Source: Candidatus Bipolaricaulota bacterium
GTDB lineage: Bacteria > Bipolaricaulota > Bipolaricaulia > RBG-16-55-9 > DRXL01
Reading direction: 5' to 3'
NCBI GenBank assembly: GCA_025061735.1
Contig: JANXAU010000037.1
Location: forward strand, 816 to 64,815
Length of the DNA: 64,000 bases
Numbering within the stretch: the stretch's first letter is position 1; the number at the start of each line of letters is the position of its first letter. Below, piece by piece: positions 38,101 to 54,173 of this stretch. Below the pieces are notes generated by a model. It did no database searches and had not been told where the DNA came from. It worked only from the letters and a program-made list of their open reading frames with translations. A program made the translations under genes and the position numbers.

Positions 38101-38595
38101 GCGCTGAGCGAGAGATTGATCATTGGAGAGCTGAGCCTGACGCTAGAGTACGATCTCAATCAGCACCGTTGGCAGCGGCTAGGGGGGCAACTGTCGGGGG
38201 CCGTAGGAGATCATTTGCCCTTGCAGTATCAGGTCTCGACGGCTTATCTGGTCTCGCAGCGCTCCTTTGAAGATTTGATCTTCAAGCTCAGTTGGAGGGA
38301 GCATCGTCTGAGCGGGAGCGTGGACGTGAACAGACTCAGCTTGAAGCGTCTCAATGCGGAGACGAGCTGGGCGTGGGGGGACTGGGAGTTCTCATTAAAG
38401 GGCGAGTATGATCTGTGGAGTCGGCGCTTTACGGCCCTGCAAGTCGGCGTGATCAAAAAATTTTGCAAGGCGTGTTGGCAGATGGGGCTGTATGGGGACG
38501 GGCAACGCTGGTGGGTGCAGGCGCAGATCAACGCGTTCCCCACCGCTCAAGTGCGCTACTCCCCCACCGATCAGCGCCTGTCGTTTGGGCGCTGA
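35113..38595 (+). CDS. LptF/LptG permease fused to OstA/LptA-like repeats and an LptD-like beta-barrel (1160 aa)
   Basis: N-terminal ~370 aa match LptF/G (DRYLLRE, RLSHDRELIALQAAGYS, WIPNLLFG); then jellyroll-like ADRL...IAEGRV repeats, LptD-like ITTC...YSIRA...VPVFWAP and PDFG...RGWYL, then an alternating beta-strand region; no stop codon in between. Confidence 0.8.
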   Translation: MLLVDRYLLREMVFPFFLAVAGFVLFVFLNLFQQLSDFMLDRDLSFWVLVQILLYRLPELLVYGLPVGVLFAIFWALGRLSHDRELIALQAAGYSLRRLMWPVFLMGALTALIAFGVGDFVVPWANHQHFNLLRQIFLIRSAPQIREDTFFKLTESASAYVQRYDPQTQTLKTILIFDQRGEHELAELGGKFPKIIAADEGFWDGDYWRLRRGQVHKLNDDGTFAYSVTFEQLSLYAGPYLQKLFLEQRTPHEMSLSEIGEQIALLRKNGLEAQSLIVEYHTKIAVPLSAMIFALFGAPLSLIFAQGGAPRGRAAGVILSVVLVACYQGLLLWTSTLGKRDLLLPSLAPWIPNLLFGLLGALLLLVVDRWSRLDLWARWRGWLRLGVAIAAIASAETTALAVQSTNSQALLLDLRADRLTVARDWNTVIAEGRVRFAYNDGHLSAGQLQAERRCRNDEACSGPQSPALWRLVASGNVRWQSDELDLQSARMELEIEWDGQRWVPQTARLHDATLSYERGRLQAREIRAQIAEDRWRVVAQGAVRLHQEDELKVAHVGELSFDLERRRASEDAPSRWQIQRAHLREFSGETRFQSAAKREETLRFVGERAEAVFGQEGRLARLEITNGEITTCACGEPVARAAYSIRAAYLRLERDESVWATNIWLKAFGVPVFWAPVYYSSLKEESRNPLLPDFGQSPERGWYLRWRFPFVIDPQNTGALLVDYYTKLPEVGTGIEYNYRLSILGAEQRGQMTLYRLVGRGESWATDWAHQGELFLGMRLSAAIATRTGLLQQELERLFTRLSLGATWGSWRWNLHWSRDQYLQIPQDSDSEVLYRFLERTPEFSLSVVPLRLGRLPASLMLSVMWGSYREKKLDKDEIDASARWEFSVGLQSLALGSPLLTVQAGAYYRFWLYQPKEYRREAYDLTVTVLSRPWPFFSADANYTYRLVFGQSPFSFDQIHVQNHIALRATLHTFGRPHVSTGYDLSKRLFDLLRIALSERLIIGELSLTLEYDLNQHRWQRLGGQLSGAVGDHLPLQYQVSTAYLVSQRSFEDLIFKLSWREHRLSGSVDVNRLSLKRLNAETSWAWGDWEFSLKGEYDLWSRRFTALQVGVIKKFCKACWQMGLYGDGQRWWVQAQINAFPTAQVRYSPTDQRLSFGR

Positions 38596-40820: not shown

Positions 40821-41978
40821 ATGGACTCCGGGTTTGCTGAGATCGCTCTCCAAGTGATCGTCATTCTGGGATGCTCGAAGCTCTTGGCGGTGCTGCTGGA
40901 GCGCCTTGGGCAAGAGGCCGTCGTCGGGGAGCTGCTGCTGGGAGTGCTCTTGGGGCCGTATCTATTGGGGTTTGTCAACCCCAAGGGGGAAGCTGTTCTT
41001 GCGTTTCTTTCGGAGCTGGGCATCATCGTGCTCGCTTTTTATATTGGTCTTGTGGCCGAGCTCGACCCGCTCTTGAAGGCGCGGCGCGCCGCGCTGCGCG
41101 TGGCTCTGCTGGGCATGGGGCTTTCGGTGAGCTTGGGGACGCTCTTTACGGTCTTGACCGGCCAATCGTGGCTGGTGGCGTTCTTCATGGGCGCGGCCCT
41201 CATGGCCACGAGCTTGGGCAAAGTCGGACGATTGCTCTGCACGTCGGGGCAGTTGCAGACCGTCACCGGCGGGATCATCTTGGGTGCAGCGCTCATTGAC
41301 GATCTCTTGGCGCTCTGGGGCTTAGCGGGCTTTCACGCATGGCTTGCCCCTCGTCCCTTCCGCTGGGAACTCTTTCTCTTTGAAGGGCTGCTCTCATTGA
41401 TGATTTTAGGAGTAGGGCTGGCGCTGGGCGTCCGCTGGGCACCGCGGATCTTTCTGCTCTTAGATCGCCTAGAGACGCGCGGCATGATGATCGTCTCGGC
41501 GTTGATCTTCTGTCTGGCGCTGGCGCTGCTGGCGCAGAGTCTGGGCTTGGCCGTAGTCGTGGGGGCGTTTGCCGCTGGGCTGATGCTCGAATACGTCCAT
41601 CGCGAGGGGCAGATCACCCGCCAAGTCGAGACGCTCTGCGATCTCTTCGTGCCCTTCTATTTTGTGAAAGCCGGGGCGTTGCTCGACCCAACGGCTCTGC
41701 TCAAACCGTCGGTGCTCTTGTTGGCTCTGGGGCTTTTGGCCATCGCTCTGATGGCAAAGCTTTTGGGGGGATTGGCCGTGGGGCAGCTCTCGCGCAGGGC
41801 CAGATGGACCATCGGGATCGCGATGATCCCCCGTGGGGAAGTCTCGCTCATCTTTGCGACGTTTGGCCTAGAGTCCGGGCTGCTCTCCAAAGAACTCTAC
41901 ACGGCGATCCTCTTTGTCGTGATTTTAACGAGTGTGCTCGCGCCCCTCTTGCTGAATCTGTTGCAGCGCCGCCGTTGA
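40821..41978 (+). CDS. Cation:proton antiporter (CPA2, Kef/NapA-like)
   Basis: About 12-13 TM segments; VVGELLLG, GAALIDD, GAFAAGL, FVPFYFVKAG, MIPRGEV. Confidence 0.9.
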   Translation: MDSGFAEIALQVIVILGCSKLLAVLLERLGQEAVVGELLLGVLLGPYLLGFVNPKGEAVLAFLSELGIIVLAFYIGLVAELDPLLKARRAALRVALLGMGLSVSLGTLFTVLTGQSWLVAFFMGAALMATSLGKVGRLLCTSGQLQTVTGGIILGAALIDDLLALWGLAGFHAWLAPRPFRWELFLFEGLLSLMILGVGLALGVRWAPRIFLLLDRLETRGMMIVSALIFCLALALLAQSLGLAVVVGAFAAGLMLEYVHREGQITRQVETLCDLFVPFYFVKAGALLDPTALLKPSVLLLALGLLAIALMAKLLGGLAVGQLSRRARWTIGIAMIPRGEVSLIFATFGLESGLLSKELYTAILFVVILTSVLAPLLLNLLQRRR

Positions 41979-42989
41979 AAGCTCTTGCAGCACTGCCGTC
42001 AAGACCTGCTGTGCTCTCTGATACTCATCTAAGCTGAGATGCTCATTCGGGGTGTGATCGAGCGCAGAATCTCCGGGGCCGTAGGCAACGATGGGCACGC
42101 CCCACGCCGGGCCGAGCACGTTCATATCCGAAGTTCCGGTCTTGAGCTTGAACGACGGCTCGCCCCCTGCAGCGCGAATCGCTTTTAAAAAAGCGCGCAC
42201 CAGCGCGTTGTTTTTGTCGGCGCGAAAGGCCGGCGTCGGATCTCCCAAGACCACGTTAGCATCGGGAGCAATCGTGGCGATGAACGACTTTAACTCTACA
42301 AGATCAAACCCCAGCGGCGTGCGCAGATCGAGCGTCATCTCGACCAAGTCTTCCAAGCCTCGGTCGTAGGTGCGGATCTCGATCAAGCGCACATCTACCG
42401 ACTCAAACGCGTTCTTCCCCGCGGGATAGCGACTCTTGAGGGCCTGATAGAAGCGAAACGCCTCTTCGCCGACGGTGGGCGTCGCGTGGCCGTGATGGGC
42501 CGGAGGGCATTTCAGCTCGTAGAGCACCGAGACGCTTCCGCGATAGCCGAGCGTAACGCTCTCCCAGCCGCTGGGTTCGCCGATCACGACACAGTCGGGC
42601 CGATAAGGCTGTTCCAGCAGATGGCGCGCGCCCTCCGAGCAGCACTCCTCGGCAACGCAGCCGATCACCCAGACCGTCAGCGCGCGCGACTCTTTAAAAA
42701 GTCGAGCGCTCTCGATAAAGACCGCCAAGCTCCCCTTGGCGTCTACGGCTCCGCGCCCGTAGAGCTTCCCATCCTCGACGCGCACGGGGATCTCCCCCGA
42801 CACGGTGTCCATGTGCCCGACTAGAAAGACTTTTCTGGGGCCGTGTCCGATCCGCGCGATCAGATTGCCCACGTCATCTAGCTCCGTGTCAAATCCCCAC
42901 CGGCGCAGCTCGTCGCGCAAGAACTCGGCTAGCTGCTCTTCGCAGTGCGCGGGACTGTAGAGTTCGAGCATCTTCTTGAGCAGTTCCAT
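41925..42989 (-). CDS. lysK: [LysW]-lysine/ornithine hydrolase (M20)
   Basis: LVGHMDTV, GRGAVDAKG, AEE, GEPSG, GTSDMN, YGPGDSALDHTPNEH; last gene of the LysW cluster. Confidence 0.9.
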   Translation of the reverse strand: MELLKKMLELYSPAHCEEQLAEFLRDELRRWGFDTELDDVGNLIARIGHGPRKVFLVGHMDTVSGEIPVRVEDGKLYGRGAVDAKGSLAVFIESARLFKESRALTVWVIGCVAEECCSEGARHLLEQPYRPDCVVIGEPSGWESVTLGYRGSVSVLYELKCPPAHHGHATPTVGEEAFRFYQALKSRYPAGKNAFESVDVRLIEIRTYDRGLEDLVEMTLDLRTPLGFDLVELKSFIATIAPDANVVLGDPTPAFRADKNNALVRAFLKAIRAAGGEPSFKLKTGTSDMNVLGPAWGVPIVAYGPGDSALDHTPNEHLSLDEYQRAQQVLTAVLQELSTAALQQIQQEGREHTR

Positions 42990-42993
42990 AAGC

Positions 42994-44169
42994 CTAAAAG
43001 ATCTTCTGCAGTGTCTCAATCACGTGATCTATCTCGGCCCGGCTGATCTCCAACGGGGGCAGGAAGCGCATCACCGTCGGCCCGGCTTGTAACGCTAGTA
43101 TCCCGTGTTCTATTAATTTTGTCAAATAGGGCGCAGACTTCTCTTTGAGTTCCAACCCCAGCATCAGCCCTAACCCGCGCGCTTGGCGCACCGGGCCAAA
43201 GCCCTCTAGCTCTTTCAATCTGCTGAGAAAATACGCACCGTGCTCGCGTGCTTGACGCACCAGATCTCTCTCTAAGATATACTCGATCGTCGCGCGCGCC
43301 GCGGCGCACGCCAAGGGATTCCCCCCAAACGTCGAGCCGTGCTCAGCCTTCTCTAACTTAATATCTTCGCGCAACAGCACCGCGCCGATAGGCACGCCAC
43401 CGCCCATAGACTTAGAGAGACAGAGAATATCGGGTTCGATCTGGGCGTGCTCGCACGCAAAGAGGCGCCCCGTGCGCCCAAAACCCGTCTGAATCTCGTC
43501 TAAGATCAACAAGATATTCTTCTGAGAGCAGAGCCGGCGCACGGCTTGGAGATATTCGACCGTCGCTACATGGACGCCGCCCTCGCCCTGGACGGGTTCG
43601 AGCAGCACGGCGGCGGTCTCGTCCGTGATCGCGCTCTCCAGCTTCTCGATATCCCCAAAGGGCACGAACGAGAACTGCGGGACGAGCGGCTCGAACGGCT
43701 CGCGATACTTCGGATTCCACGTGGCGCTGAGCGCCCCCAACGTGCGCCCGTGAAAGCCCCGCATCATCGCAATAATCCCGGGTTTTTTGGTGAACCCCCG
43801 CGCGAACTTAATCGCCCCTTCTATCGCTTCGGTGCCGGTGTTGCATAAGAAGACTCTTTTGAGATTTTTGGGGGCGATTTCAAAGAGCTTCTCTATGAGC
43901 GCCGCGCGCGCGTCGTTGTAGAAATGCCCATCGGGACAAGTAAGCAACCGCTGAGCTTGCTCGGTGATCGCGCGCACGACGTGCTCGTTGGCGTGACCCA
44001 CCAAGGCTACCCCCATTCCCGTCGCACAATCTAGATATTCGCGCCCTTCGATGTCCCAGACGCGCGTCCCGCGACCGCGCACCAACACTATGGGCTTCTT
44101 GCTGTAGACGCCGCTGGCGTGACGATCTTCGATCTCCAGAATAGCTTGAGCCGTGATGAGCGTGTGCAT
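42994..44169 (-). CDS. lysJ: [LysW]-aminoadipate/glutamate semialdehyde transaminase (class III)
   Basis: NTGTEAIEGA, FHGRT, EPVQGEGG, DEIQTGFGRTG, LSKSMGGG, HGSTFGGNP. Confidence 0.9.
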   Translation of the reverse strand: MHTLITAQAILEIEDRHASGVYSKKPIVLVRGRGTRVWDIEGREYLDCATGMGVALVGHANEHVVRAITEQAQRLLTCPDGHFYNDARAALIEKLFEIAPKNLKRVFLCNTGTEAIEGAIKFARGFTKKPGIIAMMRGFHGRTLGALSATWNPKYREPFEPLVPQFSFVPFGDIEKLESAITDETAAVLLEPVQGEGGVHVATVEYLQAVRRLCSQKNILLILDEIQTGFGRTGRLFACEHAQIEPDILCLSKSMGGGVPIGAVLLREDIKLEKAEHGSTFGGNPLACAAARATIEYILERDLVRQAREHGAYFLSRLKELEGFGPVRQARGLGLMLGLELKEKSAPYLTKLIEHGILALQAGPTVMRFLPPLEISRAEIDHVIETLQKIF

Positions 44170-44193
44170 AAGCTCTTCCCTCTCTTTATTAGT

Positions 44194-44988
44194 CTAGCAG
44201 ATACGCGTGCCCATGCCTTGGAGGGTCTTGGTGAGCGGGGCTTCGCCGCGTGCCCCGCCCAATAGAACTTCTTTAACCCCGCCGTCGAGTGCCTCTTGGG
44301 CAGCTAAGAGTTTCTTCTTCATGCTGCCGCGCGCGTAAGTCTCTATAAATGCTTCGATCTGATCGCGCGTGACCCTCTCAATCACGCTTTGAGGATCTTG
44401 AGGGTCGCGCAGCAGCCCCGGTACGTTCGACAGGATCACCAAGCGCTCGGCTTTGAGAGCAACGGCGATCTGGGCGGCGCAACGATCGCCATCGACGTTG
44501 ATCGCCACGCCCTCGTAGCTGATCGCTGGCGGGGTGAGGACGGGCGTATAGCCGTGATCTAAAAGAAGCTTTAGAAGCTGGGTGTTGACACGCTCGATGA
44601 TCCCGCTGAGGTCGCCCCTCAAAATCTTCTTGCGCCCGTTCTCTATGATTTTCAAAGCTTCTTTCTGGCGGCCCTCTAGGATTCTACCGTCAAGACCCGA
44701 CAACCCAATAGCGTTGACGCCCGCGTGCTGGAGCTTCTCAACCAGCATCTTGTTCATCTTGCCGGCGTAGACCATATTGAAGATCTCCAGCGTCTCGCGG
44801 TCGGTGTAACGGCTGGTGAACCCCGAGACCGACGTGACGAAGACGGGGGGCTTGCCCAGCTTGGTAGCGATCTCTTCTAATTGAGAAGAGCCGCCGTGCA
44901 CGAGCACGTAGTCTCTATACTGAGCCAGATCGCGCACGAACGCGTCGTAGTCTATTCCCTTGCTGCCCCCGATCTTGACGACAAACAT
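44194..44988 (-). CDS. lysZ: [LysW]-aminoadipate/glutamate kinase
   Basis: VVKIGGS, VHGGS, FVTSVSGFTSRYTD, NVDGDR, MKKKLLAA. Confidence 0.92.
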   Translation of the reverse strand: MFVVKIGGSKGIDYDAFVRDLAQYRDYVLVHGGSSQLEEIATKLGKPPVFVTSVSGFTSRYTDRETLEIFNMVYAGKMNKMLVEKLQHAGVNAIGLSGLDGRILEGRQKEALKIIENGRKKILRGDLSGIIERVNTQLLKLLLDHGYTPVLTPPAISYEGVAINVDGDRCAAQIAVALKAERLVILSNVPGLLRDPQDPQSVIERVTRDQIEAFIETYARGSMKKKLLAAQEALDGGVKEVLLGGARGEAPLTKTLQGMGTRIC

Positions 44989-44996
44989 AGAGAAGC

Positions 44997-45025
44997 ATTA
45001 TAAACTACACCGCGATGGTTGACAA
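44997..45025 (-). promoter_or_regulatory. Internal sigma70 promoter for lysZ-lysJ-lysK
   Basis: Minus strand TTGTCA (45025-20), 17 nt, TATAAT (45002-44997), 8 nt, ATG 44988; no SD. Confidence 0.75.
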
Positions 45026-45069
45026 TCTCCCATCTGTGCTTGGCCTCAGCTTTCTGCTATAATTCTATG

Positions 45070-45309
45070 ATGATCATCATCACGATAGATGAAATTCAAC
45101 GAGATGTGAAAAGCTACCTGCAACGGGTCAAAGCAGGAGAGACTCTAGTGATTCTCGAAGCGAACAGACCCGTCGCAGAGATCAAGCCGATCATAGCTCA
45201 CGAAGACTCTTTACGACCATACGCCCTATGCGCGGGAGAGTTTCACGTGCCAGAAGACTTTGATGCCCCCTTGCCCGACGAAGTCATCCAGCAGTTTGAA
45301 GGACGATGA
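45070..45309 (+). CDS. Phd/YefM family antitoxin
   Basis: ITIDEIQRD...LQRVKAGETLVILEANRPVAEIKP...VPEDFDAPLPDEV; TG-C-TATAAT (45055-63) lies 6 nt upstream. Confidence 0.82.
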   Translation: MIIITIDEIQRDVKSYLQRVKAGETLVILEANRPVAEIKPIIAHEDSLRPYALCAGEFHVPEDFDAPLPDEVIQQFEGR

Positions 45310-45698
45310 GACTGCTACTTGACACGCACATCTTCCTGTGATATATCACCGGAGACGCTCGCCTATCAATCCCAGTGTTGCAGTTGATCCGTGATCCAGC
45401 TAATGACGTCTATCTCAGCGTTATCTCGGTCTGGGAAGCGATGGTGAAGTATCAGCTTGGCAGGCTGCCCTTACCTCAAGCGCCAGACCTCTATATCTCC
45501 GAACAGCGTCAGCGCCATAAGATCGCAAGCCTGGCCTTGGATGAACTCAGGGTGACTAAGCTCGCTAAGCTTCCTGCTTTGCATAAAGACCCCTTCGACC
45601 GCATGATCATCTGCCAAGCGATCCAACACGGCTTAACCCTAGCCTCTGCAGACAGTGCTGTACGAGCTTACTCCGCTCACGTACTAATCGTTCCATGA
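45306..45698 (+). pseudogene. VapC/PIN toxin with an in-frame TGA at codon 12
   Basis: Reads MRLLLDTHIFL*YITGDARL...SVISVWE...HKDPFDRMIICQA; the TGA (45339-41) falls where this family usually has Trp. Confidence 0.8.
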
Positions 45699-45721
45699 AG
45701 ATCACAAACGTCTTTAAGCAG

Positions 45722-46756
45722 TCACGGATGCAACCCCCAGTGATCTAAGCCTATCTTCTCATCTAAACCGCACATCAGATTGAAACACTGCACGGCTTGG
45801 CCCGCTGCGCCCTTCATCAGATTATCTATGGCACAGATCACGACCAAGCGCCCCGTATGCTCGTCCTTCTCAAAGCCGATATCGCAGAAGTTCGTGCCTG
45901 CGACGATCTTGGGTTCGGGAAAACGATAGAGCCCCGCACGCTCTTTGACGATCCTCACAAACGGCTCATCTCTGTACGCTTGCAGATACGTCTGCCAAAT
46001 ATCTTTCTCGGTGTACTCGTCTTCAAGAAAGACGTGGAGCGTGCTGAGAATCCCGCGCACCAGCTCGACCGCGTGGGGCGAGAACGAAATTTTCAATCCC
46101 AGCTCCTGCTCGATCTCGGCGATGTGACGGTGCCCCGTGGGCTTGAAGCTGCGCACGACCCCGGCGCGCTCGGGATGGTGGCTGTCCGGCCCCGGCTCCG
46201 CTCCCCCCGCCGACGAGCCGACTTTCGAGTCAATCACGACCAACTTCACTCTAAATCGCTGCACTAACGGCCACAACGGGATGATCGCGCTCGTCGCCGT
46301 GCAGCCGGGCACCGCCACCCATCTGGCTCTTTTAATCTCTTCTCGGTGCAGCTCCGGCAGTCCATAGACAAACTTACCCAACAGCTCCGGGTGCGGATGT
46401 TCGTAGCCGTACCACGTGGGATAGTCTTGCGGGTTTTTAAGGCGAAAATCTGCGCTCAGATCAATGACTCTTTCGGCGATCTTCAGATAGCCGGGCATCT
46501 CGGCCATCGTCTGGCCGTGGGGCCGCGCGGTGAAGAGCACGTCGCTCTCTTTTAAGTCTTCAGGAGCGCTGAATTTCAGCTCCGTCCTCCCGCGCAGCTG
46601 GGGGTGCGCGCGCGTAACGGGCTTGCCCGCGAGGCTGCGCGAGACCACCGTGACGACCTCCACAAACGGGTGACTCAATAACAAGCGCAACAGCTCGCCT
46701 CCTACGTATCCCGATCCCCCAACAATCCCCACTCTGATTCTCTCTCGCTCAGGCAT
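45722..46756 (-). CDS. lysY: [LysW]-aminoadipate/glutamate-phosphate reductase (ArgC-like)
   Basis: GGSGYVGGE, IDLSADFRL, VYGLPELHR, PGCTATS, SHHPER, IDNLMKGAAGQA. Confidence 0.92.
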   Translation of the reverse strand: MPERERIRVGIVGGSGYVGGELLRLLLSHPFVEVVTVVSRSLAGKPVTRAHPQLRGRTELKFSAPEDLKESDVLFTARPHGQTMAEMPGYLKIAERVIDLSADFRLKNPQDYPTWYGYEHPHPELLGKFVYGLPELHREEIKRARWVAVPGCTATSAIIPLWPLVQRFRVKLVVIDSKVGSSAGGAEPGPDSHHPERAGVVRSFKPTGHRHIAEIEQELGLKISFSPHAVELVRGILSTLHVFLEDEYTEKDIWQTYLQAYRDEPFVRIVKERAGLYRFPEPKIVAGTNFCDIGFEKDEHTGRLVVICAIDNLMKGAAGQAVQCFNLMCGLDEKIGLDHWGLHP

Positions 46757-47591
46757 GGGCCGACACCTGCTCAACGTAATCTAAAATCTTTTCGGCAATC
46801 GCAACGCCCGTCGGTGCCAAGAGATCCCGAAACTCCCCCACGCTGTTGACCTCGTGCACCACCAAGCCCTCCGAAGACTCCATCAGATCGATCGCCAAGA
46901 CGCCGCCGCCCACGGCGCGCGCGGCTTGCAAGCAGAGCGCGCGCAACTCCGCCGTGACAGGACAGTTCTCGACCTTGGCGCCACGGTCGCTATGCGTAAT
47001 CCAGTGTCGTCCCGCCCGATACACGGCGCAGATGACTTCGTCCCCCACGACAATCGCTTGAATATCCCGCCCCGGCTTGGGAATGTACTTCTGTATATAA
47101 AAGATCGAGTGGTAGTAAGACCCCAAGCTGTCTTTGTGTTCCAAGATCGCTTCGGCCGATTCACGATCGTTGACCTTTGCTAATAGCTTGCCCCACGTGC
47201 CAACGGCGGGCTTGAGAATGACAGGATACCCCATACGCTCTATGGCCGCGAGTGCGCTTTCGGGGGTGAAGGCGACCAAGACGTCGGGCGTGGGGATATG
47301 ATGCTTGCGCAGGAGCTTGGAGATCGAGACTTTGTCGGCGCAGCGCCGGGCTACGTCGTAAGCGTTGATCGTGCGAATGCCCGCCCTTTCTAAGAGAAAG
47401 AGCGCGCAGAGATCTCTGGGGTGCAAAAAATCCCGCGCGAGCACCACATCAAACGGAAAATGGTTCTCTAAACCGAATATGAGATTTCTCAGATCGGCTT
47501 TGATCACGTTGTGCCCGCGTCGGCTGGCCTCTTGCATCAAGAGTTTCTCTTCTATCCCGACGCGCGTGCAGAGCAACCCCAGATTAAGCAT
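46749..47591 (-). CDS. LysX/ArgX family ATP-grasp ligase, copy B (divergent)
   Basis: DKVSISKLL, KPAVGTWGKL, YIQKYIPKPGRDI, VHEVN; substrate loop reads WITHSDRG. Confidence 0.82.
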   Translation of the reverse strand: MLNLGLLCTRVGIEEKLLMQEASRRGHNVIKADLRNLIFGLENHFPFDVVLARDFLHPRDLCALFLLERAGIRTINAYDVARRCADKVSISKLLRKHHIPTPDVLVAFTPESALAAIERMGYPVILKPAVGTWGKLLAKVNDRESAEAILEHKDSLGSYYHSIFYIQKYIPKPGRDIQAIVVGDEVICAVYRAGRHWITHSDRGAKVENCPVTAELRALCLQAARAVGGGVLAIDLMESSEGLVVHEVNSVGEFRDLLAPTGVAIAEKILDYVEQVSAHA

Positions 47592-48477
47592 ACGTCACGC
47601 TCTCTTTCTTCTCTTCTTTCTTTCTCTCTTTGGCAACGCGCACGCAGTAGTCGATCAGCAGATCGGGAATAGGAGCGTCGATCACGGCCATGCTCGCCTT
47701 GAACTCCATCGCACAGTTGACTTCATGAACCGTTAAGCCGTTGGGGGTTTCCATCAAATCCACAGCCAGGGCTTGGCCGCCTACGGCGCGCGCGGCCCTC
47801 ACGCAGAGATCGTTCAGTTCGGGGGTGACCTTGCAGGGCACCGTCCAGCCGCCGCGCGCCGCGTTCGTCAGCCAGTGATTCGAAACTCTGTAAGCCGCTC
47901 CAACGGTCTCGTCGCCGATCACATAAGCGCGAATATCGCGATCGGGCTTCTCGATGTACTCTTGAATGTAAAAGACCGAGTGATAGTACGAGCTGAGATG
48001 GGCTTTGTGCTCTAAGATGGCTTCAGCGGCCGTACGGTTCTCGATCTTGGCCATCAGTCGTCCCCAAGAGCCGTCCACGGGCTTGAGCACCACGGGGTAG
48101 CCCAGCTCTTCGATGGCCGCCAATGCGCTCTCTTTGGTGAAGGCGACTTTGATCGCTGGCGTGGGGACGCCCGCATCGTGGAGCACTTTAGATGTGAGCA
48201 GCTTGTCGCCACCAATCCGCGTCGCTTCAAAGCTGTTGATGGTGATCACGCCGGAGCCTTCAAAGAGCTGGAGCGCATAGAGCGCCCGCGATTGAGAGAT
48301 CTCGCGATCCAAGAGCACGTCTATCGGCGGGCGCTCATCCAAGCTTAAGATCAGCTCACGGCTGTCAATCGGGACAAGCTCGACGTCGCGACGGCGCTGC
48401 GCCGCTTGAAAGAGCAGCTTCTCCTCCAAGCGCAACCGCGAGAAGAGTATGCCTACACGGACTTTCTCCATAGCCAT
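47584..48477 (-). CDS. lysX: LysX family [LysW]-amino-acid ligase, copy A
   Basis: REISQSRAL, GDKLLTS, KPVDGSWGRL, YIQEYIEKPDRDIR, WLTNAARG, HEVNCAMEFK. Confidence 0.88.
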   Translation of the reverse strand: MAMEKVRVGILFSRLRLEEKLLFQAAQRRRDVELVPIDSRELILSLDERPPIDVLLDREISQSRALYALQLFEGSGVITINSFEATRIGGDKLLTSKVLHDAGVPTPAIKVAFTKESALAAIEELGYPVVLKPVDGSWGRLMAKIENRTAAEAILEHKAHLSSYYHSVFYIQEYIEKPDRDIRAYVIGDETVGAAYRVSNHWLTNAARGGWTVPCKVTPELNDLCVRAARAVGGQALAVDLMETPNGLTVHEVNCAMEFKASMAVIDAPIPDLLIDYCVRVAKERKKEEKKESVTYA

Positions 48478-48487
48478 TTCTTTCTCT

Positions 48488-48523
48488 CCCCTCTCCCTCT
48501 CAGGGAGAGGGGTAGGGTGAGGG
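48488..48523. repeat. REP-like hairpin element between lysW and lysX
   Basis: CCCCTCTCCC-TCTCA-GGGAGAGGGG-TA-GGGTGAGGG; nearly identical to 50079-50113. Confidence 0.75.
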
Positions 48524-48694
48524 TTACTCTCCCCAATCTTCTTCTTCTTCGGGAGCCAACGCGACTTTCAGGGGGTTCAAGCTCACGACTTCCAGCTCGA
48601 TCCCACACGTATCGCACGTCAGGATCTCGTTCTCCACGACATCCGCCGGAAGTTCTACTTCGGAGCCGCATTCGGGGCACTCGACTCTCTTCAT
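48524..48694 (-). CDS. lysW: Amino-group carrier protein LysW (56 aa; absent from the ORF track)
   Basis: My translation is [56 protein letters not shown]: two CxxC pairs plus the EDWGE tail; SD GAGAGGTGA. Confidence 0.95.
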
Positions 48695-48708
48695 ACGATT
48701 CACCTCTC

Positions 48709-50046
48709 TTACTGATGGATGAGTCTGTCTAACGTCTTAAGATATCGCTCGCGCTCGACGCGCCACTCTCTGTGCGCTCTCTCTATCTCGCTCTTCAGGA
48801 CGTCTAGCTGAAGATTTCCCGGCCCGCCCAGATGCGCTCGCTTCTTTAGAGCGTCTTTGAGATTGGGCACGCGCAGCGCGCTCAGCTCGCGCTTGAGATT
48901 CTGATAGGCTTTGCGAAACGGCACCCCGCGCTGCACCTCTTCCAAGACCCTATCTACGGCGAAGATCTCCGCCGAGCACGCCGCCCGGAGCTTCGCTTCG
49001 TTGACGCGCAGCTCTGGAATCAGCCTGCTCAAGACGGCTAAGCAGTCTCGTGTTGTAAGCAGGCTCTTCATGAACGGCTCTTTCGTCTCTTGCAGATCGC
49101 GATGGTACCCCGACGTCAGCCCGTGCACGACCAGCGCCACCGCACCGCCGGCGCTCACCACCCGCGCCACGCGCGCGCGAATCAATTCCAACAGATCGGG
49201 ATTGGTCTTGTTGGGCATCAAACTGCTGCCGGTGCAGAAGCGTTCTGGGATCTCAAAAAATCCAAACTCCTCCGACGAAAACCAAACCAGATCGTCGGCC
49301 AGACGCCCGATCGTGAGCATCACGCTGCCCAAGGCGCTCACGGTCGCGAATTCGAGCTTCCCGCGGCTGTTCATCGCGGCGAGCGCATTTCTCTGGACAG
49401 CCTTGAAGCCCAGCAGTTCGGCCGTGAGCGCGCGGTCGAGCGCCAAGGGCACGCCGTAGCCCGCAGCCGCCCCTAAGGGCGAAGCGTCGTTCAGCTCATA
49501 GACAGCTTTGACGAGCTTCACGTCATCGAGCAAGCTCTCGCTGAACGCCGCGGCCCACAGCCCCACCGACGCGGGCATGGCGCGGCGCGTGTGGGTGTAA
49601 CCGGGCATCGGGACGAACTCGTGCTTCTGTGCAAATTCTGCCAGCGCCTCGGCCAGTGCCAGCAACTCTAGAGCGATCTCTTGGAGGCGCTCTTTTGCAT
49701 AGAGTCTCAGATCTGCCAAGACCTGATCGTTGCGCGACCGGCCCGTGTGGAGCTTCTGCCCCAGTTCGCCAAGCCGAGCCACGAGCAGATTCTCGATCTT
49801 GGTGTGGATATCTTCGTCCTCGACGGAGAGCGTGAGCTTCTGATCCAACAGCTCTAGGAGCGCTCCTCGCAAACGGCAATGCTCCTCTGCCGTTAGCACT
49901 CCAATCTTCTGGAGCATCGCAGCGTGGGCCAGCGAGCCGAGAACGTCATAGCGAGCGAGCGCCTCGTCCAAGGGCAGGTCGTCTTGGGCGGTGAAGCGCT
50001 CGACGATAACGTCGGTCTTCTCTCGGCCTGTCTCCCAGAGCTTCAT
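48709..50046 (-). CDS. argH: Argininosuccinate lyase
   Basis: [49 protein letters not shown]. Confidence 0.93.
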
Positions 50047-50057
50047 CGTCAGCCCCA

Positions 50058-50113
50058 CCCTCACCCGGCCTTCGGCCTCCCTCTCCCTTCCAGGGAGAGG
50101 GTTGGGGTGAGGG
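50058..50113. repeat. Y-shaped REP-like element inside the argG 3' end
   Basis: Outer CCCTCACCC (50058-66)/GGGTGAGGG (50105-13); inner GGCC-TTC-GGCC and CCCTCTCCC-TTCCA-GGGAGAGGG. Confidence 0.75.
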
Positions 50114-51347
50114 TCTTTCTCACGCGATGGGCCACGCGCGTCGGCAGCCCCCAGATCTCGATAAAACCGGGCGCGGCCATCTGATTGAACGTGTGATGCG
50201 CATCGTACGTCGCTAAGTTCAAGTCATACAGCCCGTTGGGCGATTGCCGCCCCACGACTTGGACGTGCCCCTTATAGAGCTTCAGGCGCACCGTGCCCGT
50301 CACGCGCTCATTCACTTTATTAATATAAGCGTTGAGCGCCTCCATCAACGGATCGTACCACAGCCCTTTATACACCAGCTCGGCCCACTTGCGGTCTATC
50401 AGGGGCTTGAACTCGTTCTCGTGAATGGTGCAGCAGAAGCGTTCGAGGTCCCTGTGCGCCGTTAAGATCGTCACAGCAGCGGGGCACTCGTAGATCTCGC
50501 GCGATTTGAGTCCCACGACGCGGTCTTCGGTCATATCGATAATGCCGACGCCGTGGCGCCCGGCGATCTCGTTGAGCTTGAGGATCAGATCGACCAAGTT
50601 CAAGCGCTTCCCGTCGAGCGCGACGGGCAGGCCCTCTTCAAACGTCAGTTCGACATAAGCGGGCCTCTCCGGCGCTTGCTCAGGAGGCGTAGCGTAAGAG
50701 AAGATCTCCGGGGGAGGCTCTTGGTCGGGATGCTCTAAAACCCCGCACTCGATGCTGCGGCCCCACATGTTCTCATCTGTAGAATAGGGCGAGTCCACAT
50801 CTACGGGCACGGGGATGCCGTGCTTTTTGGCGTAGGCGATCTCGGCGTCGCGGGTCATGTTCCATTCGCGCACCGGAGCCAAGACGCGCAGCGCGGGATC
50901 GAGCGCCTGAATCGAGATATCAAAGCGCACCTGATCGTTGCCCTTGCCGGTGCAGCCGTGCGCGACCGCGTCCGCGTTGATCTTGTGGGCGTATTCGACG
51001 GCGAGCTTGGCGATCAGGGGGCGAGCGACGGCGGTGCTCAACGGGTACTGATCTTGGTAGAGGCCGTTGGCCTTGATTAACGGGGCGATATAGTTCTGGG
51101 CGAACTCCTCGCGAGCGTCCACGATAAACGCTTCTTGGACGCCGAGCTGGTGGGCCTTGGCGCGCGCGGCCTCGAGGCCGCCCTGGCCCAGATCTACCGT
51201 CAGCGTCGCGATCTCGGCCTCGTAGTGCTCTTGGAGCCACTTGATGAGACACGACGTGTCGAGTCCACCAGAATAGAGCAAGAGAATCTTGCGGATCTTC
51301 GAGGGCCCTGTGCTCTTGGGGGGGCTCATCGTGGGTGCTGTGTGCAT
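50061..51347 (-). CDS. argG: Argininosuccinate synthase
   Basis: LLYSGGLDTS, HGCTGKGNDQVRF, YSTDENMWGRSIE, KSREIYE; SD AAGGAAGGTG before ATG 51347. Confidence 0.95.
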   Translation of the reverse strand: MHTAPTMSPPKSTGPSKIRKILLLYSGGLDTSCLIKWLQEHYEAEIATLTVDLGQGGLEAARAKAHQLGVQEAFIVDAREEFAQNYIAPLIKANGLYQDQYPLSTAVARPLIAKLAVEYAHKINADAVAHGCTGKGNDQVRFDISIQALDPALRVLAPVREWNMTRDAEIAYAKKHGIPVPVDVDSPYSTDENMWGRSIECGVLEHPDQEPPPEIFSYATPPEQAPERPAYVELTFEEGLPVALDGKRLNLVDLILKLNEIAGRHGVGIIDMTEDRVVGLKSREIYECPAAVTILTAHRDLERFCCTIHENEFKPLIDRKWAELVYKGLWYDPLMEALNAYINKVNERVTGTVRLKLYKGHVQVVGRQSPNGLYDLNLATYDAHHTFNQMAAPGFIEIWGLPTRVAHRVRKTLTPTLSLEGRGRPKAG

Positions 51348-51349
51348 TT

Positions 51350-51441
51350 GGGGTCACCTTCCTTCAGGGTGAAAATAAAAGTCTTTGGCGAACCGATAGA
51401 GCGCCTGGAGGCTGAGAGAGCGAAGACCTCTCTGCCGGCGT
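51350..51441 (-). promoter_or_regulatory. Structured leader-argG spacer (candidate attenuator hairpins, U-run and SD-occluding hairpin)
   Basis: On the mRNA strand: AGAGAG-GTCTTCG-CTCTCT hairpin, GGCG...CGCC stem, TTTTATTTT (51380-72), and CACC..GGTG enclosing the argG SD. Confidence 0.5.
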
Positions 51442-51567
51442 TCAGGAGCGACGCCGACGCGGGAACGAGAGACGAAGGAGGGAACGAGCAACAACAGAGA
51501 CAGAGAGAGAAGAGAACGGCTGGCTCGTCTGAGAGCAATCTATGCTGTCTAGGCTATCTTGGGCCAT
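51442..51567 (-). CDS. Putative arginine leader peptide (41 aa)
   Basis: AAGGAGG (51579-73), 5 nt, ATG; MAQDSLDSIDCSQTSQPFSSLSVSVVARSLLRLSFPRRRRS*; tandem CGT CGG CGT CGC just before the stop. Confidence 0.72.
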   Translation of the reverse strand: MAQDSLDSIDCSQTSQPFSSLSVSVVARSLLRLSFPRRRRS

Positions 51568-51613
51568 CTCGACCTCCTTGGGATTGTGGGGCCCTCTATT
51601 AAAGCTAGCTGGG

Positions 51614-51642
51614 ATTATAGCGCTCGAGGGCACCGTTGTCAA
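51614..51642 (-). promoter_or_regulatory. Consensus sigma70 promoter of the leader-arg/lys operon
   Basis: Minus strand TTGACA (51642-37), 17 nt, TATAAT (51619-14). Confidence 0.85.
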
Positions 51643-52724: not shown

Positions 52725-53045
52725 ATGATGCGCTTAACAGAGAAGCGCTGCGTTCCGTGTCGAGGCGGCGTCCCGCCGATGACCGTCGAGCAGGCCCAAG
52801 AGTATCTCAGAGAGATCGTGGGCTGGGAGCTGATCGACGGGAAGAAGATCGTCAAAGAGTTCAAATTTAAGAAGTACTTAGAGAGTTTGGAGTTTGCTCA
52901 ACGAGTCGGGGAGCTGGCCGAGCGCGAGGGGCATCACCCGTATATTCATATCTTTTACAAAAAAGTACGGATCGAAATCTGGACCCATAAGATCGACGGG
53001 CTGACCGAGAGCGATTTTATCTTGGCGGCGAAGATTGATGACCTC
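52725..53045 (+). CDS. Pterin-4-alpha-carbinolamine dehydratase domain (no stop; in frame with thrC)
   Basis: CVPCRGG, EGHHP, WTHKIDGLTESDFILAAKID; continues through a 19-codon linker into thrC. Confidence 0.85.
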
Positions 53046-53099
53046 CCCCCTCAGTCCCCTTCCCTACGCGCTATTCGCCGTGCCGCCAGAGGCGGCACG

Positions 53100-54173
53100 A
53101 TGGACAGTCCAGACGAAGTCTGGCCCGGCGTCTATGCCCGCTATCGAGAGCATCTGCCCCCTATTGCTGACGAGAATATCATCACGCTGCTGGAGGGCGG
53201 CACGCCCCTGGTGCGCGCGCAGAATCTTGAACGTCGGTTTGGCTTGCCGTGCGCGCTCTATCTCAAGTGCGAGGGTGCCAATCCCACCGGGTCGTTCAAA
53301 GATCGCGGCATGACCGTGGCGATCTCGCAGGCGAAGCAAGCGGGCGCTCAGGCCGTCCTCTGCGCTTCGACGGGGAACACGGCCGCGTCGGCGGCAGCCT
53401 ATGCGGCCCGCGCAGGAATGAGGGCTTTTGTGATCGTGCCCGAGGGCCAGATCGCCTTGGGAAAGCTCGCCGGCTCGATGATCTACGGTGCCACGGTCAT
53501 TCAGATTCAGGGCAATTTCGACAGAGCTTTAGAAATAGTGCGCCAGATCGCGCAAGAGCATCCCGTGACGCTGGTGAATTCGGTCAATCCCTATCGCATC
53601 GAAGGGCAGAAGACGGCAGCATTTGAGATCTGCGATCTCTTGGGGCGTGCGCCGGACTATCACGCGCTGCCGGTGGGCAACGCTGGGAATATCACGGCGT
53701 ATTGGAAGGGGTATTGTGAGTATTTCGCTGCGAAGAAGATCGCGCAGCGTCCGGTGATGCTGGGCTTTCAAGCCGAGGGCGCGGCGCCTCTCGTCTTGGG
53801 CCATCCCATCGAGAACCCCAAGACGGTCGCCACGGCGATCAAGATCGGCAACCCCGCGAGCTGGCAAGGAGCCATCCAAGCGCGCGACGAGTCCGGGGGA
53901 CTCATCACAACCGTGACTGACGAGCAGATTCTCGAAGCGTATAGATTGTTAGCACAGCTAGAGGGGGTCTTCTGCGAGCCGGCATCGGCGGCGTCGGTCG
54001 CGGGGGTGCTTCGGTTGGCTTGGCAAGATTACTTCAAGCCCGGAAGCATCGTCGTCTGCACGCTGACGGGGCACGGGCTGAAAGACCCTGATAATGCGCT
54101 TGCCGTAGGCTCATCCGAACGGATATCGGTAGAAGCGAAGCTAGAAGCCGTGCTGGATGTCATGGGGCTGTGA
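53100..54173 (+). CDS. thrC: Threonine synthase
   Basis: TLLEGGTPL, NPTGSFKDRG (PLP Lys), ASTGNTAAS, PVGNAGNI, EPASAASVAG, TGHGLKD. Confidence 0.93.
   Translation: MDSPDEVWPGVYARYREHLPPIADENIITLLEGGTPLVRAQNLERRFGLPCALYLKCEGANPTGSFKDRGMTVAISQAKQAGAQAVLCASTGNTAASAAAYAARAGMRAFVIVPEGQIALGKLAGSMIYGATVIQIQGNFDRALEIVRQIAQEHPVTLVNSVNPYRIEGQKTAAFEICDLLGRAPDYHALPVGNAGNITAYWKGYCEYFAAKKIAQRPVMLGFQAEGAAPLVLGHPIENPKTVATAIKIGNPASWQGAIQARDESGGLITTVTDEQILEAYRLLAQLEGVFCEPASAASVAGVLRLAWQDYFKPGSIVVCTLTGHGLKDPDNALAVGSSERISVEAKLEAVLDVMGL

Follow-up and report, generated by a model that had tools for sequence, protein, structure and literature searches.

A putative LysW-dependent ornithine-arginine operon with a remodeled second ligase in a thermophilic Acetothermia bacterium

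Introduction

Does a bacterial LysW carrier operon headed by argG and argH make lysine, arginine, or both? This question is raised by a 64-kb stretch of DNA (64,000 nucleotides, referred to below as the window) from a hot-spring, thermophilic Acetothermia (Bipolaricaulota) bacterium. An earlier note on the window had proposed that the LysW route supplies ornithine to ArgG and ArgH, possibly with dual use for lysine and arginine. To our knowledge, synthesis of ornithine on a LysW carrier has been demonstrated experimentally in archaea only, and in no bacterium. Our comparative analysis points, with a probability of about 0.7, to a LysW/ArgW-type ornithine-arginine operon.

Results and Discussion

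Organization of the operon

The operon is encoded by the minus strand in the order promoter, leader ORF, argG-argH-lysW-lysXa-lysXb-lysY, a toxin-antitoxin (TA) insertion, and lysZ-lysJ-lysK, neighboring genes abutting or sharing a few bases (Table 1). Gene identities were assigned from NCBIfam profile scores, in bits, in comparison to the cut-off of each model, and all nine arg and lys genes of the earlier note were recovered where it had placed them. ArgH comprises 451 residues from a GTG start codon or 445 residues from an ATG at position 50046. With the LysJ model NF042418, lysJ scored 485 bits, under the cut-off of 700. The single lysW copy of the window encodes a carrier with a CxxC...CxxC zinc ribbon and the C-terminal sequence EEEEDWGE. 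The hairpin between lysW and lysXa, which is not followed by a U tract, is retained in a 92%-identical relative (L002) with one pair altered on both sides and may act as a transcript stabilizer or processing site.

By homology, LysXa would load glutamate onto LysW, LysZ would phosphorylate the bound glutamate, LysY would reduce the LysW-bound intermediate, and LysJ would generate LysW-ornithine by transamination, ornithine being finally freed by LysK. Conversion of ornithine to arginine would involve OTC, encoded elsewhere, followed by the co-transcribed ArgG and ArgH. What the data establish are the gene identities, their order, the motifs, and the signs of conservation and selection; we infer the substrates, the mode of regulation, and the replacement of the acetyl pathway by the LysW route.

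Table 1. Positions of the operon features in the window
Feature	Positions	Strand	Basis
Promoter P1, TTGACA-17 nt-TATAAT	51614-51642	-	12/12 consensus matches
Leader ORF, 41 codons, MAQDSLDSIDCSQTSQPFSSLSVSVVARSLLRLSFPRRRRS*	51442-51567	-	
argG, argininosuccinate synthase, 428 aa	50061-51347	-	NF001770, 565 bits (cut-off 334)
argH, argininosuccinate lyase	48709-50064	-	TIGR00838, 323 bits (cut-off 279.5)
lysW/argW, amino-group carrier protein, 56 aa	48524-48694	-	TIGR01206, 66.6 bits (cut-off 53.2)
11-bp GC-rich hairpin between lysW and lysXa, CCCCUCUCCCU-GAG-AGGGAGAGGGG	48488-48512	-	
lysXa, ATP-grasp LysW ligase, bacterial Xa subfamily	47584-48477	-	TIGR02144, 311 bits (cut-off 276)
lysXb, diverged ligase, Xb_div subfamily	46749-47591	-	TIGR02144, 281 bits (cut-off 276)
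lysY/argC, LysW-glutamyl (or aminoadipyl) phosphate reductase	45722-46774	-	argC model TIGR01850, 397 bits (cut-off 234)
Insertion, 733 bp	44989-45721		Comparison with L002
PIN (VapC-like) toxin gene	45306-45698	+	
Phd/YefM-like antitoxin, 79 aa	45070-45309	+	PF02604, 25 bits, below cut-off
Promoter P2, TTGTCA-17-TATAAT, insertion-borne	44997-45025	-	11/12 consensus matches
lysZ/argB-like [LysW]-amino-acid kinase, 264 aa	44194-44988	-	NF010659, 383 bits (cut-off 223)
lysJ/argD-like aminotransferase, 391 aa	42994-44169	-	TIGR00707, 457 bits (cut-off 410)
lysK/argE-like M20 hydrolase releasing the product from LysW, 354-364 aa	41925-43019	-	NF003367, 390 bits (cut-off 363)

Two predicted ligase subfamilies

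The products of lysXa and lysXb appear to belong to functionally distinct subfamilies, a point missed by the earlier note. LysXa has the signature Y-A-A-A-S, with Asp132 located within KPVDGSWGR, and belongs to a subfamily of at least 83 clusters (90% identity) defined by the pattern [FYL][ATSV][AV][AGTES]S. Asn258 was never found among these clusters. This residue is common to all aminoadipate (AAA)-accepting enzymes that were compared (N-S in Tt, N-T in Sa, and N-A in Tk) and is missing from the Glu-only enzymes (G-F in Sulfolobus and A-L in haloarchaea). The 13 haloarchaeal ArgX sequences, of signature [LV]-M-A-A-L, have A203 and A258 in common with LysXa, to which haloarchaeal ArgX is 48% identical. 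In an NJ tree with StArgX as the outgroup, the Xa clade was recovered in 100% of the bootstraps and joined Xb in 75%; in an NJ tree that included haloarchaeal ArgX, these sequences were the sister or nearest outgroup of the Xa clade with a bootstrap value of only 39%. We propose that LysXa is a glutamate--LysW ligase, i.e., that it has the ArgX function. Neither ligase of the window displays the signature of any characterized ArgX, and deduction of the substrate from the motif is soft, because motif swaps in NgArgX indicate that the five signature residues alone do not fix specificity (PMC10433800).

LysXb has the signature I-V-S-D-L and differs from the rest of the family at otherwise conserved sites (S134T, R180Q, N202H, and A204D). 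Three of these substitutions (R180Q, N202H, and S134T) are fixed in the LysXb subfamily, at sites that are invariant in 316 to 319 of the 319 other family members, and R180, N202, and A204 are conserved across AAA-specific and Glu-specific enzymes alike. The subfamily is discrete (12 clusters at ≥76% identity). Among the matches listed at ≤64% identity, the signature was F-[IV]-T-N-S, except for L-I-T-N-S and F-I-T-K-S, and the tree placed the origin of LysXb in the F-I-T-N-S clade. LysXb is under purifying selection, with dN/dS ratios of about 0.05 (0.047 versus L002 and 0.051 versus L003). Judging from its remodeled substrate-site residues, LysXb has lost the appearance of an aminoadipate ligase.

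Linkage to arginine and lysine genes

The survey covered 80 related lysW loci from several phyla and 110 ligase sequences. argG and argH lie next to the lysW cluster in 16 of the 30 loci with a non-N258 ligase versus none of the 50 N258-only loci (Fisher p = 5e-9, a value that counts related genomes rather than independent events). The linkage was detected in Acetothermia, Marinimicrobia, Anaerolineae, Chloroflexia, KSB1, and haloarchaea, only in the presence of a non-N258 ligase. The F-I-T-N-S signature was found in 65 of the 110 sequences and in neither ligase of the window. In two relatives, L231 and L232, argF (OTC, 355 bits for a cut-off of 306) is located divergently upstream of argG. 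Thus, the proposed feeding of ornithine to ArgG and ArgH by the LysW route is well supported by comparison, namely, by the haloarchaeal gene order, the linkage, the leader, and argF in a relative (see below for the order and the leader).

Pfam and NCBIfam scans of every non-overlapping ORF of at least 300 aa revealed no homocitrate synthase (HCS), homoaconitase, homoisocitrate dehydrogenase (HICDH), or OTC in the 64-kb window, and tblastn searches of the window with Acetothermia HCS, HacL, HacS, HICDH, and OTC returned nothing, confirming that the three lysine-side enzymes reported as missing from the window are indeed not encoded there. The six loci of the sublineage lacked AAA-forming genes over a distance of 10 kb from the operon. 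Relatives that combine LysXa with an F-I-T-N-S LysX also possess HCS, homoaconitase, and HICDH. In L004, a divergent HICDH-HCS-hacL-hacS cluster adjoins argG; the L153 cluster has the order lysX-lysX-lysY-lysZ-lysJ-HCS-acn-acnC-IDH-lysK-HCS; and in L005, L009, and L010, the genes for HCS, homoaconitase, and HICDH lie at other places in the MAG. The co-occurrence of both ligases with aminoadipate-forming genes in relatives points to an ancestral operon that served both lysine and arginine in this bacterial clade, with LysXa as the loading enzyme for Glu and the canonical F-I-T-N-S LysX as that for aminoadipate. In the sublineage of the window, the canonical second ligase would have become the remodeled LysXb, still under selection.

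A Sulfolobus-like dual system might persist in the window lineage, in which LysXa would load glutamate, LysXb would still load aminoadipate, LysW and LysZ/Y/J/K would be shared by the two pathways, and genes elsewhere in the genome would supply HCS, homoaconitase, HICDH, and the AAA aminotransferase. This is the arrangement of the nearest outgroups, L004 and L153, and it is consistent with the F-I-T-N-S ancestry and purifying selection of LysXb. No HCS was found among the matches listed for the L002 and L003 MAGs, a result that proves nothing because the same scans overlooked an HCS that is known from the L008 contig. However, N258 and S259 are absent from 12 of 12 LysXb clusters, in addition to the changes at R180, N202, and A204, and LysXb carries F182I, a substitution that alone allows Thermus LysX to accept glutamate (PMC12998189). 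Since F-I-T-N-S occurs in neither ligase and the surroundings of the operon revealed no AAA-forming genes in any member of the sublineage, dual use looks unlikely here, although it may well describe the ancestral state in the relatives L004 and L153.

It is still less probable that LysXb lacks its own substrate and acts as a non-catalytic or regulatory partner, e.g., as a subunit of a LysXa heteromer, retained to aid assembly or to control how LysW is loaded. Such a role would be in line with the R180Q and N202H changes at invariant substrate-site residues, the replacement by GTWG[KRQ] of the GSWGR loop, which recognizes the EDWGE tail of LysW, the 8-nt overlap of lysXa and lysXb, which fits coupled synthesis, and the oligomers typical of LysX/RimK enzymes. 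Against this, R205, the ATP-grasp Lys of ILKP, and the Mg-binding residues (the D of IDL and the E and N of HEVN) are intact in LysXb, whereas pseudo-enzymes usually lose some of these residues, and a single ArgX suffices in haloarchaea. Finally, an ordinary Thermus-type lysine (aminoadipate) operon, with incidental argG/argH adjacency and arginine made by the N-acetylglutamate pathway, is hardly credible: the public annotation and NCBIfam equivalogs do name LysX, [LysW]-aminoadipate kinase, and [LysW]-lysine hydrolase, and Thermus LysX is closest to both ligases among solved structures, but F-I-T-N-S is missing from both ligases, the argGH-lysW linkage recurs across phyla only with a non-N258 ligase, Arg rather than Lys codons are abundant in the leader, argF adjoins the operon in a relative, and the window lacks AAA-forming genes.

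Leader peptide

The Arg-codon leader described at the head of the operon was borne out by a consensus promoter, an AAGGAGG ribosome-binding site, and an Arg-rich ORF that terminates in FPRRRRS*, 94 nt ahead of the argG ATG. Homologous leader peptides are present 5' of argG in L003, L229, and L231, with the same N terminus; the peptide is kept in four lineages, with an Arg-rich C terminus in every one. Independent short FVRRR leaders are found in L006 and L007. No ARG box was found near the operon, and the leader region contained no terminator-like hairpin, no covarying structure, and no Rfam match, with a fold that was not unusually stable (z = 0.5). Transcription from P1 would run through the conserved leader with its C-terminal run of Arg codons, and ribosome stalling would probably tie expression to the supply of arginine or Arg-tRNA. 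Attenuators of the trp, his, leu, and thr type likewise comprise a short translated ORF that follows the promoter, precedes the first biosynthetic gene, and contains consecutive codons for the end product of the pathway. Unlike these attenuators, the leader revealed no U-tract terminator hairpin and no conserved alternative pairings, and both ends of its peptide sequence are conserved among lineages, which suggests, in place of classical attenuation, a mechanism dependent on the peptide or coupled to translation.

TA insertion

The TA pair, previously assigned to the operon strand, is in fact antisense. The insertion directly follows the lysY stop codon and directly precedes the lysZ start codon, and it is missing from L002, in which the two genes overlap as TGATG. 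The antitoxin and toxin genes share 4 nt (ATGA). Codon 12 of the toxin gene is an in-frame TGA (45339-45341; MRLLLDTHIFL*YITGD), the stop replacing Trp, and the toxin is probably inactivated. Since only 8 nt separate P2 from the lysZ ATG, the lysZJK mRNA is probably leaderless. A recent antisense TA insertion would have split the operon and given lysZJK a new promoter. Type II Phd/YefM-VapC (PIN) pairs similarly consist of a small antitoxin gene overlapping a PIN toxin gene, but here the toxin is interrupted at codon 12 and the cassette occupies the opposite strand within a biosynthetic operon.

Comparison with known systems

The closest known system appears to be the haloarchaeal ArgW cluster rather than that of Sulfolobus, with which the locus had been compared. 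Knock-outs of argW, argX, argB, and argD in Natrinema gari are arginine auxotrophs, and the ArgX of this species ligates Glu, not AAA, in vitro (PMC10433800). The order from argG to the M20 hydrolase gene is the same in both systems, as confirmed on a haloarchaeal contig (L233), the carriers share the EDWGE end, and haloarchaeal ArgX, like LysXa, lacks Asn258 and carries Ala203 and Ala258. The haloarchaeal route is dedicated to arginine, as proposed here, lysine being made via DAP. The differences are the bacterial host, the location of lysXb between the first ligase gene and argC/lysY, the location of argF outside the operon, the Arg-rich leader peptide before argG, and the ligase signature (Y-A-A-A-S versus [LV]-M-A-A-L), the function here being a prediction.

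The LysW system of Sulfolobus has paralogous LysX (AAA) and ArgX (Glu) enzymes (Ouchi et al. 2013, as cited in PMC12998189). The combination of one carrier, one set of downstream enzymes, and two paralogous ATP-grasp ligases follows exactly the same logic as in L004 and L153, but the NJ clades indicate that the ligase duplication was independent, the signature of Sulfolobus ArgX is I-Y-V-G-F in comparison to Y-A-A-A-S for LysXa, and, unlike in Sulfolobus, the AAA-type partner is remodeled in the window lineage and argG and argH have joined the operon. The Thermococcus kodakarensis LysX/ArgX (Y-I-T-N-A) shares Tyr182 with LysXa of the window and L002 but is a single bifunctional enzyme differing at the other four signature residues, whereas two ligases are present here. 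In the aminoadipate pathway of Thermus thermophilus and Deinococcus, LysW, LysZ, LysY, LysJ, and LysK are homologous to those of the operon, and among solved structures this group is the nearest in sequence (LysX 3VPD; E = 5e-69). Thermus LysX (F-I-T-N-S) is strictly AAA-specific, Thermus synthesizes arginine by the acetyl route, and its argGH are not linked to the cluster, unlike in the operon described here. The ornithine-arginine reading would thus extend the known archaeal LysW/ArgW route to a bacterium, with the addition of an altered second ligase.

Gene content of the operon

Searches with NCBIfam and Pfam models identified argG, argH, lysW, two lysX genes, lysY (argC family), lysZ, lysJ, and lysK on the minus strand, abutting or overlapping by a few bases, and every gene passed the curated cutoff of at least one model. 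The gene order proposed by the earlier note was recovered in full, except that the toxin-antitoxin genes lie on the opposite strand. LysW is a 56-residue zinc ribbon (C6, C9, C27, and C30) with the C-terminal sequence EEEEDWGE, scores above the cutoffs of TIGR01206 and PF21344, and is encoded by a single gene in the window. Both the first (LysXa) and second (LysXb) LysW ligases of the operon are RimK-type ATP-grasp enzymes that passed TIGR02144; the GSWGR loop, which recognizes EDWGE, reads KPVDGSWGR in LysXa and GTWGK in LysXb (S134T and R137K). The adjoining kinase LysZ, semialdehyde dehydrogenase LysY, class III aminotransferase LysJ, and M20 hydrolase LysK scored above the cutoffs of NF010659, TIGR01850, TIGR00707, and NF003367, respectively. 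By domain content, the operon is predicted to encode the components of a LysW/AmCP carrier-protein system, namely, carrier, ligase, kinase, dehydrogenase, aminotransferase, and hydrolase. In agreement with the earlier note, no gene for homocitrate synthase (HCS), homoaconitase, or homoisocitrate dehydrogenase (HICDH) was found within the 64 kb, and a gene for ornithine carbamoyltransferase was likewise not found there.

The remainder of the window is of a housekeeping nature (ispG, def/fmt, MoeA/MobB, asd, dprA, BamA, EF-G, ruvB, thrC, gdh, and the murD-to-ftsZ portion of the dcw cluster). The operon sequence was found only in 9.7-kb Logan contigs from hot-spring metagenomes, with no exact 60-mer match among the GTDB representative genomes, and the closest genomes are Candidatus Acetothermia/Bipolaricaulota metagenome-assembled genomes (MAGs), with LysXa identities of 92%, 84%, and 70%. 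In one of these relatives (L002), the hairpin that follows lysW has one base pair altered on both sides (C-G to A-T); unrelated hairpins occupy the same lysW-lysX position in L005 and L007, and none is present in L003, L229, or L231. The hairpin of the window may raise the carrier-protein transcript relative to those of the enzymes. Elsewhere in the window, the saccharopine dehydrogenase family protein may be connected with lysine or polyamine metabolism, and the overlap of the two listed MoeA reading frames stems from the GTG, farther upstream, at which the second one starts.

Coordinates of features in the window and in the loci of relatives
Sequence	Position	Strand	Feature	Details
Window	3954-5102	+	Saccharopine dehydrogenase family protein (PF16653/PF03435)	No NCBIfam equivalog; faint carboxynorspermidine synthase match only
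Window	6372-7607; ~7600-8809	+	Two tandem MoeA paralogs	After MobB
Window	35113-38595	+	1,160-residue protein	LptF/LptG permease domain in first 364 residues only; no Pfam match (E ≤ 1e-8) in remaining ~800
Window	48488-48512	-	Strong GC-rich hairpin without U tract	Directly after lysW
Window	52725-54173	+	Threonine synthase (TIGR00260, 309 bits)	Unusual fusion; N-terminal pterin-4a-carbinolamine dehydratase domain (PF01329, residues 18-107)
Window	57523-58425	+	Phage integrase family tyrosine recombinase	6 kb beyond the operon, beside an NAD-dependent epimerase gene
L004	3891-5303		HCS	C-terminal AsnC/Lrp-type ligand-binding (RAM) domain PF01037
L010, L011	~80-135 nt upstream of argG		Small ORF, Lys-rich (MGIILNQLKRKKNSKKK), not Arg-rich	Marinimicrobia
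L231	12235-13770		SNIPE/T5orf172 nuclease-domain gene	After lysY
L232	9885-11420		SNIPE/T5orf172 nuclease-domain gene	After lysY

Linkage of argG and argH to ligases lacking Asn258

The operon proteins were mapped onto 80 loci encoding LysX homologs. Approximately 38 of the 80, for example, in Caldilineaceae and Chloroflexales, are of a lysine type, in which genes for HCS, the large and small subunits of homoaconitase, and HICDH lie beside lysW-lysX. In a second type, found in Acetothermia, MAGs labeled "Thermotogae," Marinimicrobia, Anaerolineae, Chloroflexia, and KSB1, argG-argH directly precedes lysW. Ligases were compared at five residues (TtLysX positions 182, 192, 203, 258, and 259), for which F-I-T-N-S defines the α-aminoadipate (AAA)-specific LysX, I-Y-V-G-F the Sulfolobus ArgX, and Y-I-T-N-A the bifunctional enzymes (PMC12998189). 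F-I-T-N-S was present in 65 of the 110 ligase sequences of the surveyed loci. At least one ligase without Asn258 was present in every locus having argGH beside lysW; this linkage was observed for 16 of 30 loci with a non-Asn258 ligase versus none of the 50 with Asn258 ligases only (P = 5e-9, for loci that are phylogenetically nonindependent). The pattern recurs across several phyla; in Chloroflexota and KSB1, analogous paralogs without Asn258 have separate origins. Two Chloroflexia MAGs (L056 and L065) carry three lysX paralogs within a single argG-argH-lysW cluster, with the signatures F-I-T-N-S, F-S-T-G-L, and the very divergent L-E-R-gap-P/S; the divergent copy directly follows lysW and lacks the usual S134, R137, N202, and A204.

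LysXa as a candidate glutamate-LysW ligase

LysXa belongs to a clade (Xa; 100% neighbor-joining [NJ] bootstrap) that comprises at least 83 protein-database clusters from Acetothermia, Marinimicrobia, Fraserbacteria, and other hosts. Asp132 (KPVDGSWGR) and the signature [FYL][ATSV][AV][AGTES]S characterize its members, which never have Asn258 and are called LysX or LysW-aminoadipate ligase wherever public sources provide a name. The LysXa signature, Y-A-A-A-S, is not the F182-I192-T203-N258-S259 that defines the AAA-specific LysX of Thermus and Deinococcus (PMC12998189), differs from the I-Y-V-G-F of the Sulfolobales ArgX, and shares only Y182 with the Y-I-T-N-A of the bifunctional Thermococcales LysX/ArgX.

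In the LysXa comparison, a scan returned Halorubrum and other haloarchaeal genomes. [LV]-M-A-A-L is invariant in 13 haloarchaeal ArgX sequences, in agreement with the "Ala-Leu" of NgArgX, an enzyme that is glutamate specific in vitro and needed for arginine prototrophy (PMC10433800). Ala203 and Ala258 are common to LysXa and haloarchaeal ArgX, and positions 182, 192, and 259 differ. In the NJ tree, haloarchaeal ArgX and the Xa clade are sister groups, with a bootstrap value of only 39%; at strict thresholds, position 54 was the only one shared by the two and different in F-I-T-N-S enzymes. On the basis of its collinear gene neighborhood, its association with argGH, and the loss of Asn258 and Thr203 that it shares with haloarchaeal ArgX, LysXa is the strongest candidate for a glutamate-LysW ligase.

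Arginine versus lysine synthesis

Taken together, we consider arginine synthesis to be the best-supported reading of the operon, with a probability of roughly 0.7. Its main rival, for which the odds are distinctly lower, is that the operon supplies both lysine and arginine, as its ancestor would have done. Such ancestral dual use is suggested by the outgroup loci (L004, L005, and L007 to L011), since their second ligase has the canonical signature F-[IV]-T-N-S and their genomes encode HCS together with the partner enzymes, beside the operon (L004), within the cluster (L153), or on another contig. The ligase duplication underlying dual use was independent of that of Sulfolobus. None of the six loci in the sublineage of the window has an AAA-forming gene within 10 kb of its operon. 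No HCS of the closest MAGs (L002 and L003) appeared among the matches listed, whether from single-sequence or alignment-based searches, a result that is uninformative because the known HCS of the L008 contig was also missed. Five of the 120 HCS homologs considered for the window organism (P0001, P0003, P0006, P0012, and P0032) all came from other samples. The literature on Acetothermia amino acid metabolism yielded no statement on the lysine or arginine routes of these bacteria.

HCS with a RAM domain, as in L004 and its homologs P0001 to P0120, was found in Acetothermia, Marinimicrobia, Anaerolineae, and many archaea, and the domain suggests built-in feedback control.

The second ligase, LysXb

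The remodeled second ligase is the truly unexplained part of the operon. LysXb belongs to a discrete long branch, so far with 12 members, all from hot-spring or subsurface Acetothermia (those of the window, L002, and L003 plus nine other clusters in the database). These are at least 76% identical to the window protein, and the next matches, nearly all F-[IV]-T-N-S, are at most 64% identical. The signature of the subfamily is [IL][VI][SATP][DQHY][LMW] (I-V-S-D-L in the window), N258 being replaced by D, Q, H, or Y and S259 by L, M, or W. The replacements R180Q, N202H, and S134T (GSWGR loop) are fixed at sites invariant in 316 to 319 of 319 other family members, and A204D and changes at positions 252 to 254 are also present; together, R180Q and A204D shift the net charge by two. 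Judged by motif, R180 is the counterpart of the arginine in RimK (R189) that contacts the substrate glutamate. An Arg and an Ala are conserved substrate recognition residues of LysX and ArgX (PMC10433800); from this statement and the analogy with RimK R189, we infer that these are R180 and A204.

With I-V-S-D-L in place of F-I-T-N-S, LysXb lacks the signature of the AAA-specific LysX, and its resemblance to the Sulfolobales ArgX is limited to Ile182 and a bulky hydrophobic side chain at position 259. StArgX, which shares 32% identity with haloarchaeal ArgX, falls outside the Xa and Xb clades. The change to Ile182, which LysXb carries, alone lets Thermus LysX accept glutamate (PMC12998189). Because its ATP- and Mg-binding residues are retained and its dN/dS ratio (~0.05) is the same as that of the remaining operon genes, LysXb is probably functional, yet the substitutions in its substrate site make it appear neither LysX-like nor ArgX-like. 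A tentative and rather unlikely explanation is that LysXb represents a new subfamily of LysW ligases that gave up the dicarboxylate pocket and would load a substrate other than glutamate or AAA, such as an amine or an amino acid that is neutral or basic. If true, LysXb would open a third, undescribed carrier-protein branch inside a primary arginine operon.

Leader peptide and control of the operon

The leader rich in Arg codons that the earlier note placed at the head of the operon is indeed present. Downstream of a perfect TTGACA-17-TATAAT promoter come an AAGGAGG site and an ORF of 41 codons. The ORF ends in FPRRRRS, its run of four Arg residues being encoded by CGT CGG CGT CGC. The peptide is kept in four lineages (the window, L003, L229, and L231), with the conserved N terminus M-x-[QE]-[DE]-[SN]-[LQ]-D and C terminus R-x-L-P-R-x-[RP]-R-[SP]. 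L006 and L007 have a different leader of 16 residues containing FVRRR. A classical transcription attenuator was rejected despite the regulatory codons: no terminator-like site was found between the leader and argG, the stability of the leader region fold was unexceptional (z-score of 0.5), no covariation was detected in this region (5 pairs in RNAalifold), and the region matched no Rfam family. Control by ArgR was also rejected, as no ARG box was found near the operon. These negative results leave arginine-dependent control through translation of the leader as a plausible mechanism. A search of RNA sequencing runs returned none that covers the operon. In L231 and L232, argF and a carbamate kinase fragment lie divergently upstream of argG.

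The L010 and L011 operons, which keep both ligase types, are preceded by a Lys-rich small ORF; these operons may respond to lysine or be under dual control, or the ORF may merely be AT rich.

Disruption of the lysY-lysZ junction

Genes for a Phd-like antitoxin and a PIN toxin separate lysY from lysZ. Comparison with the 92%-identical L002 locus, in which lysY and lysZ overlap as TGATG, revealed a precise 733-bp insertion. The genes do not appear to form an intact type II Phd/YefM-VapC pair: an in-frame TGA at codon 12 of the PIN toxin gene splits the LLDTH motif from the remaining PIN domain, and the antitoxin, at 25 bits, falls short of the Pfam cutoff of 29.8. The insert contains a near-consensus promoter ending 8 nt before the lysZ ATG. 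The nuclease-domain gene that cuts the operon in L231 and L232, where lysZ, lysJ, and lysK are absent from the part of the contig covered, is a second, independent disruption at this junction.

Comparison with known carrier-protein systems

A "LysW-L-glutamate pathway" has already been listed in surveys of bacterial MAGs based on KEGG modules, Gemmatimonadota being one example, but such surveys cannot separate this pathway from the lysine route, as both modules draw on the same orthologs. Caldithrix has been described with only the Thermus-type lysine route, and an evolutionary model published in 2025 (FEBS J 2025) places bacteria on a "lysine only" branch and includes no bacterial LysW-Glu system. 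Our comparison shows a coherent and widespread subfamily of bacterial ligases tied to argG and argH. If its role is confirmed, many bacterial MAGs that now bear the annotation "lysine biosynthesis protein LysX" and are scored with KEGG modules will need to be read again, predictions of arginine and lysine auxotrophy will change, and the Asn258 rule will offer a simple, testable criterion for calling lysine versus arginine synthesis; the remodeled second ligase would then be a natural experiment in respecializing the entry enzyme of a pathway. Arginine synthesis on a carrier protein is established for Sulfolobus, Thermococcus (in vitro), and haloarchaea and has been demonstrated in archaea only. 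The haloarchaeal arginine cluster is collinear with the window operon, which points to a shared origin, possibly involving transfer between bacteria and haloarchaea.
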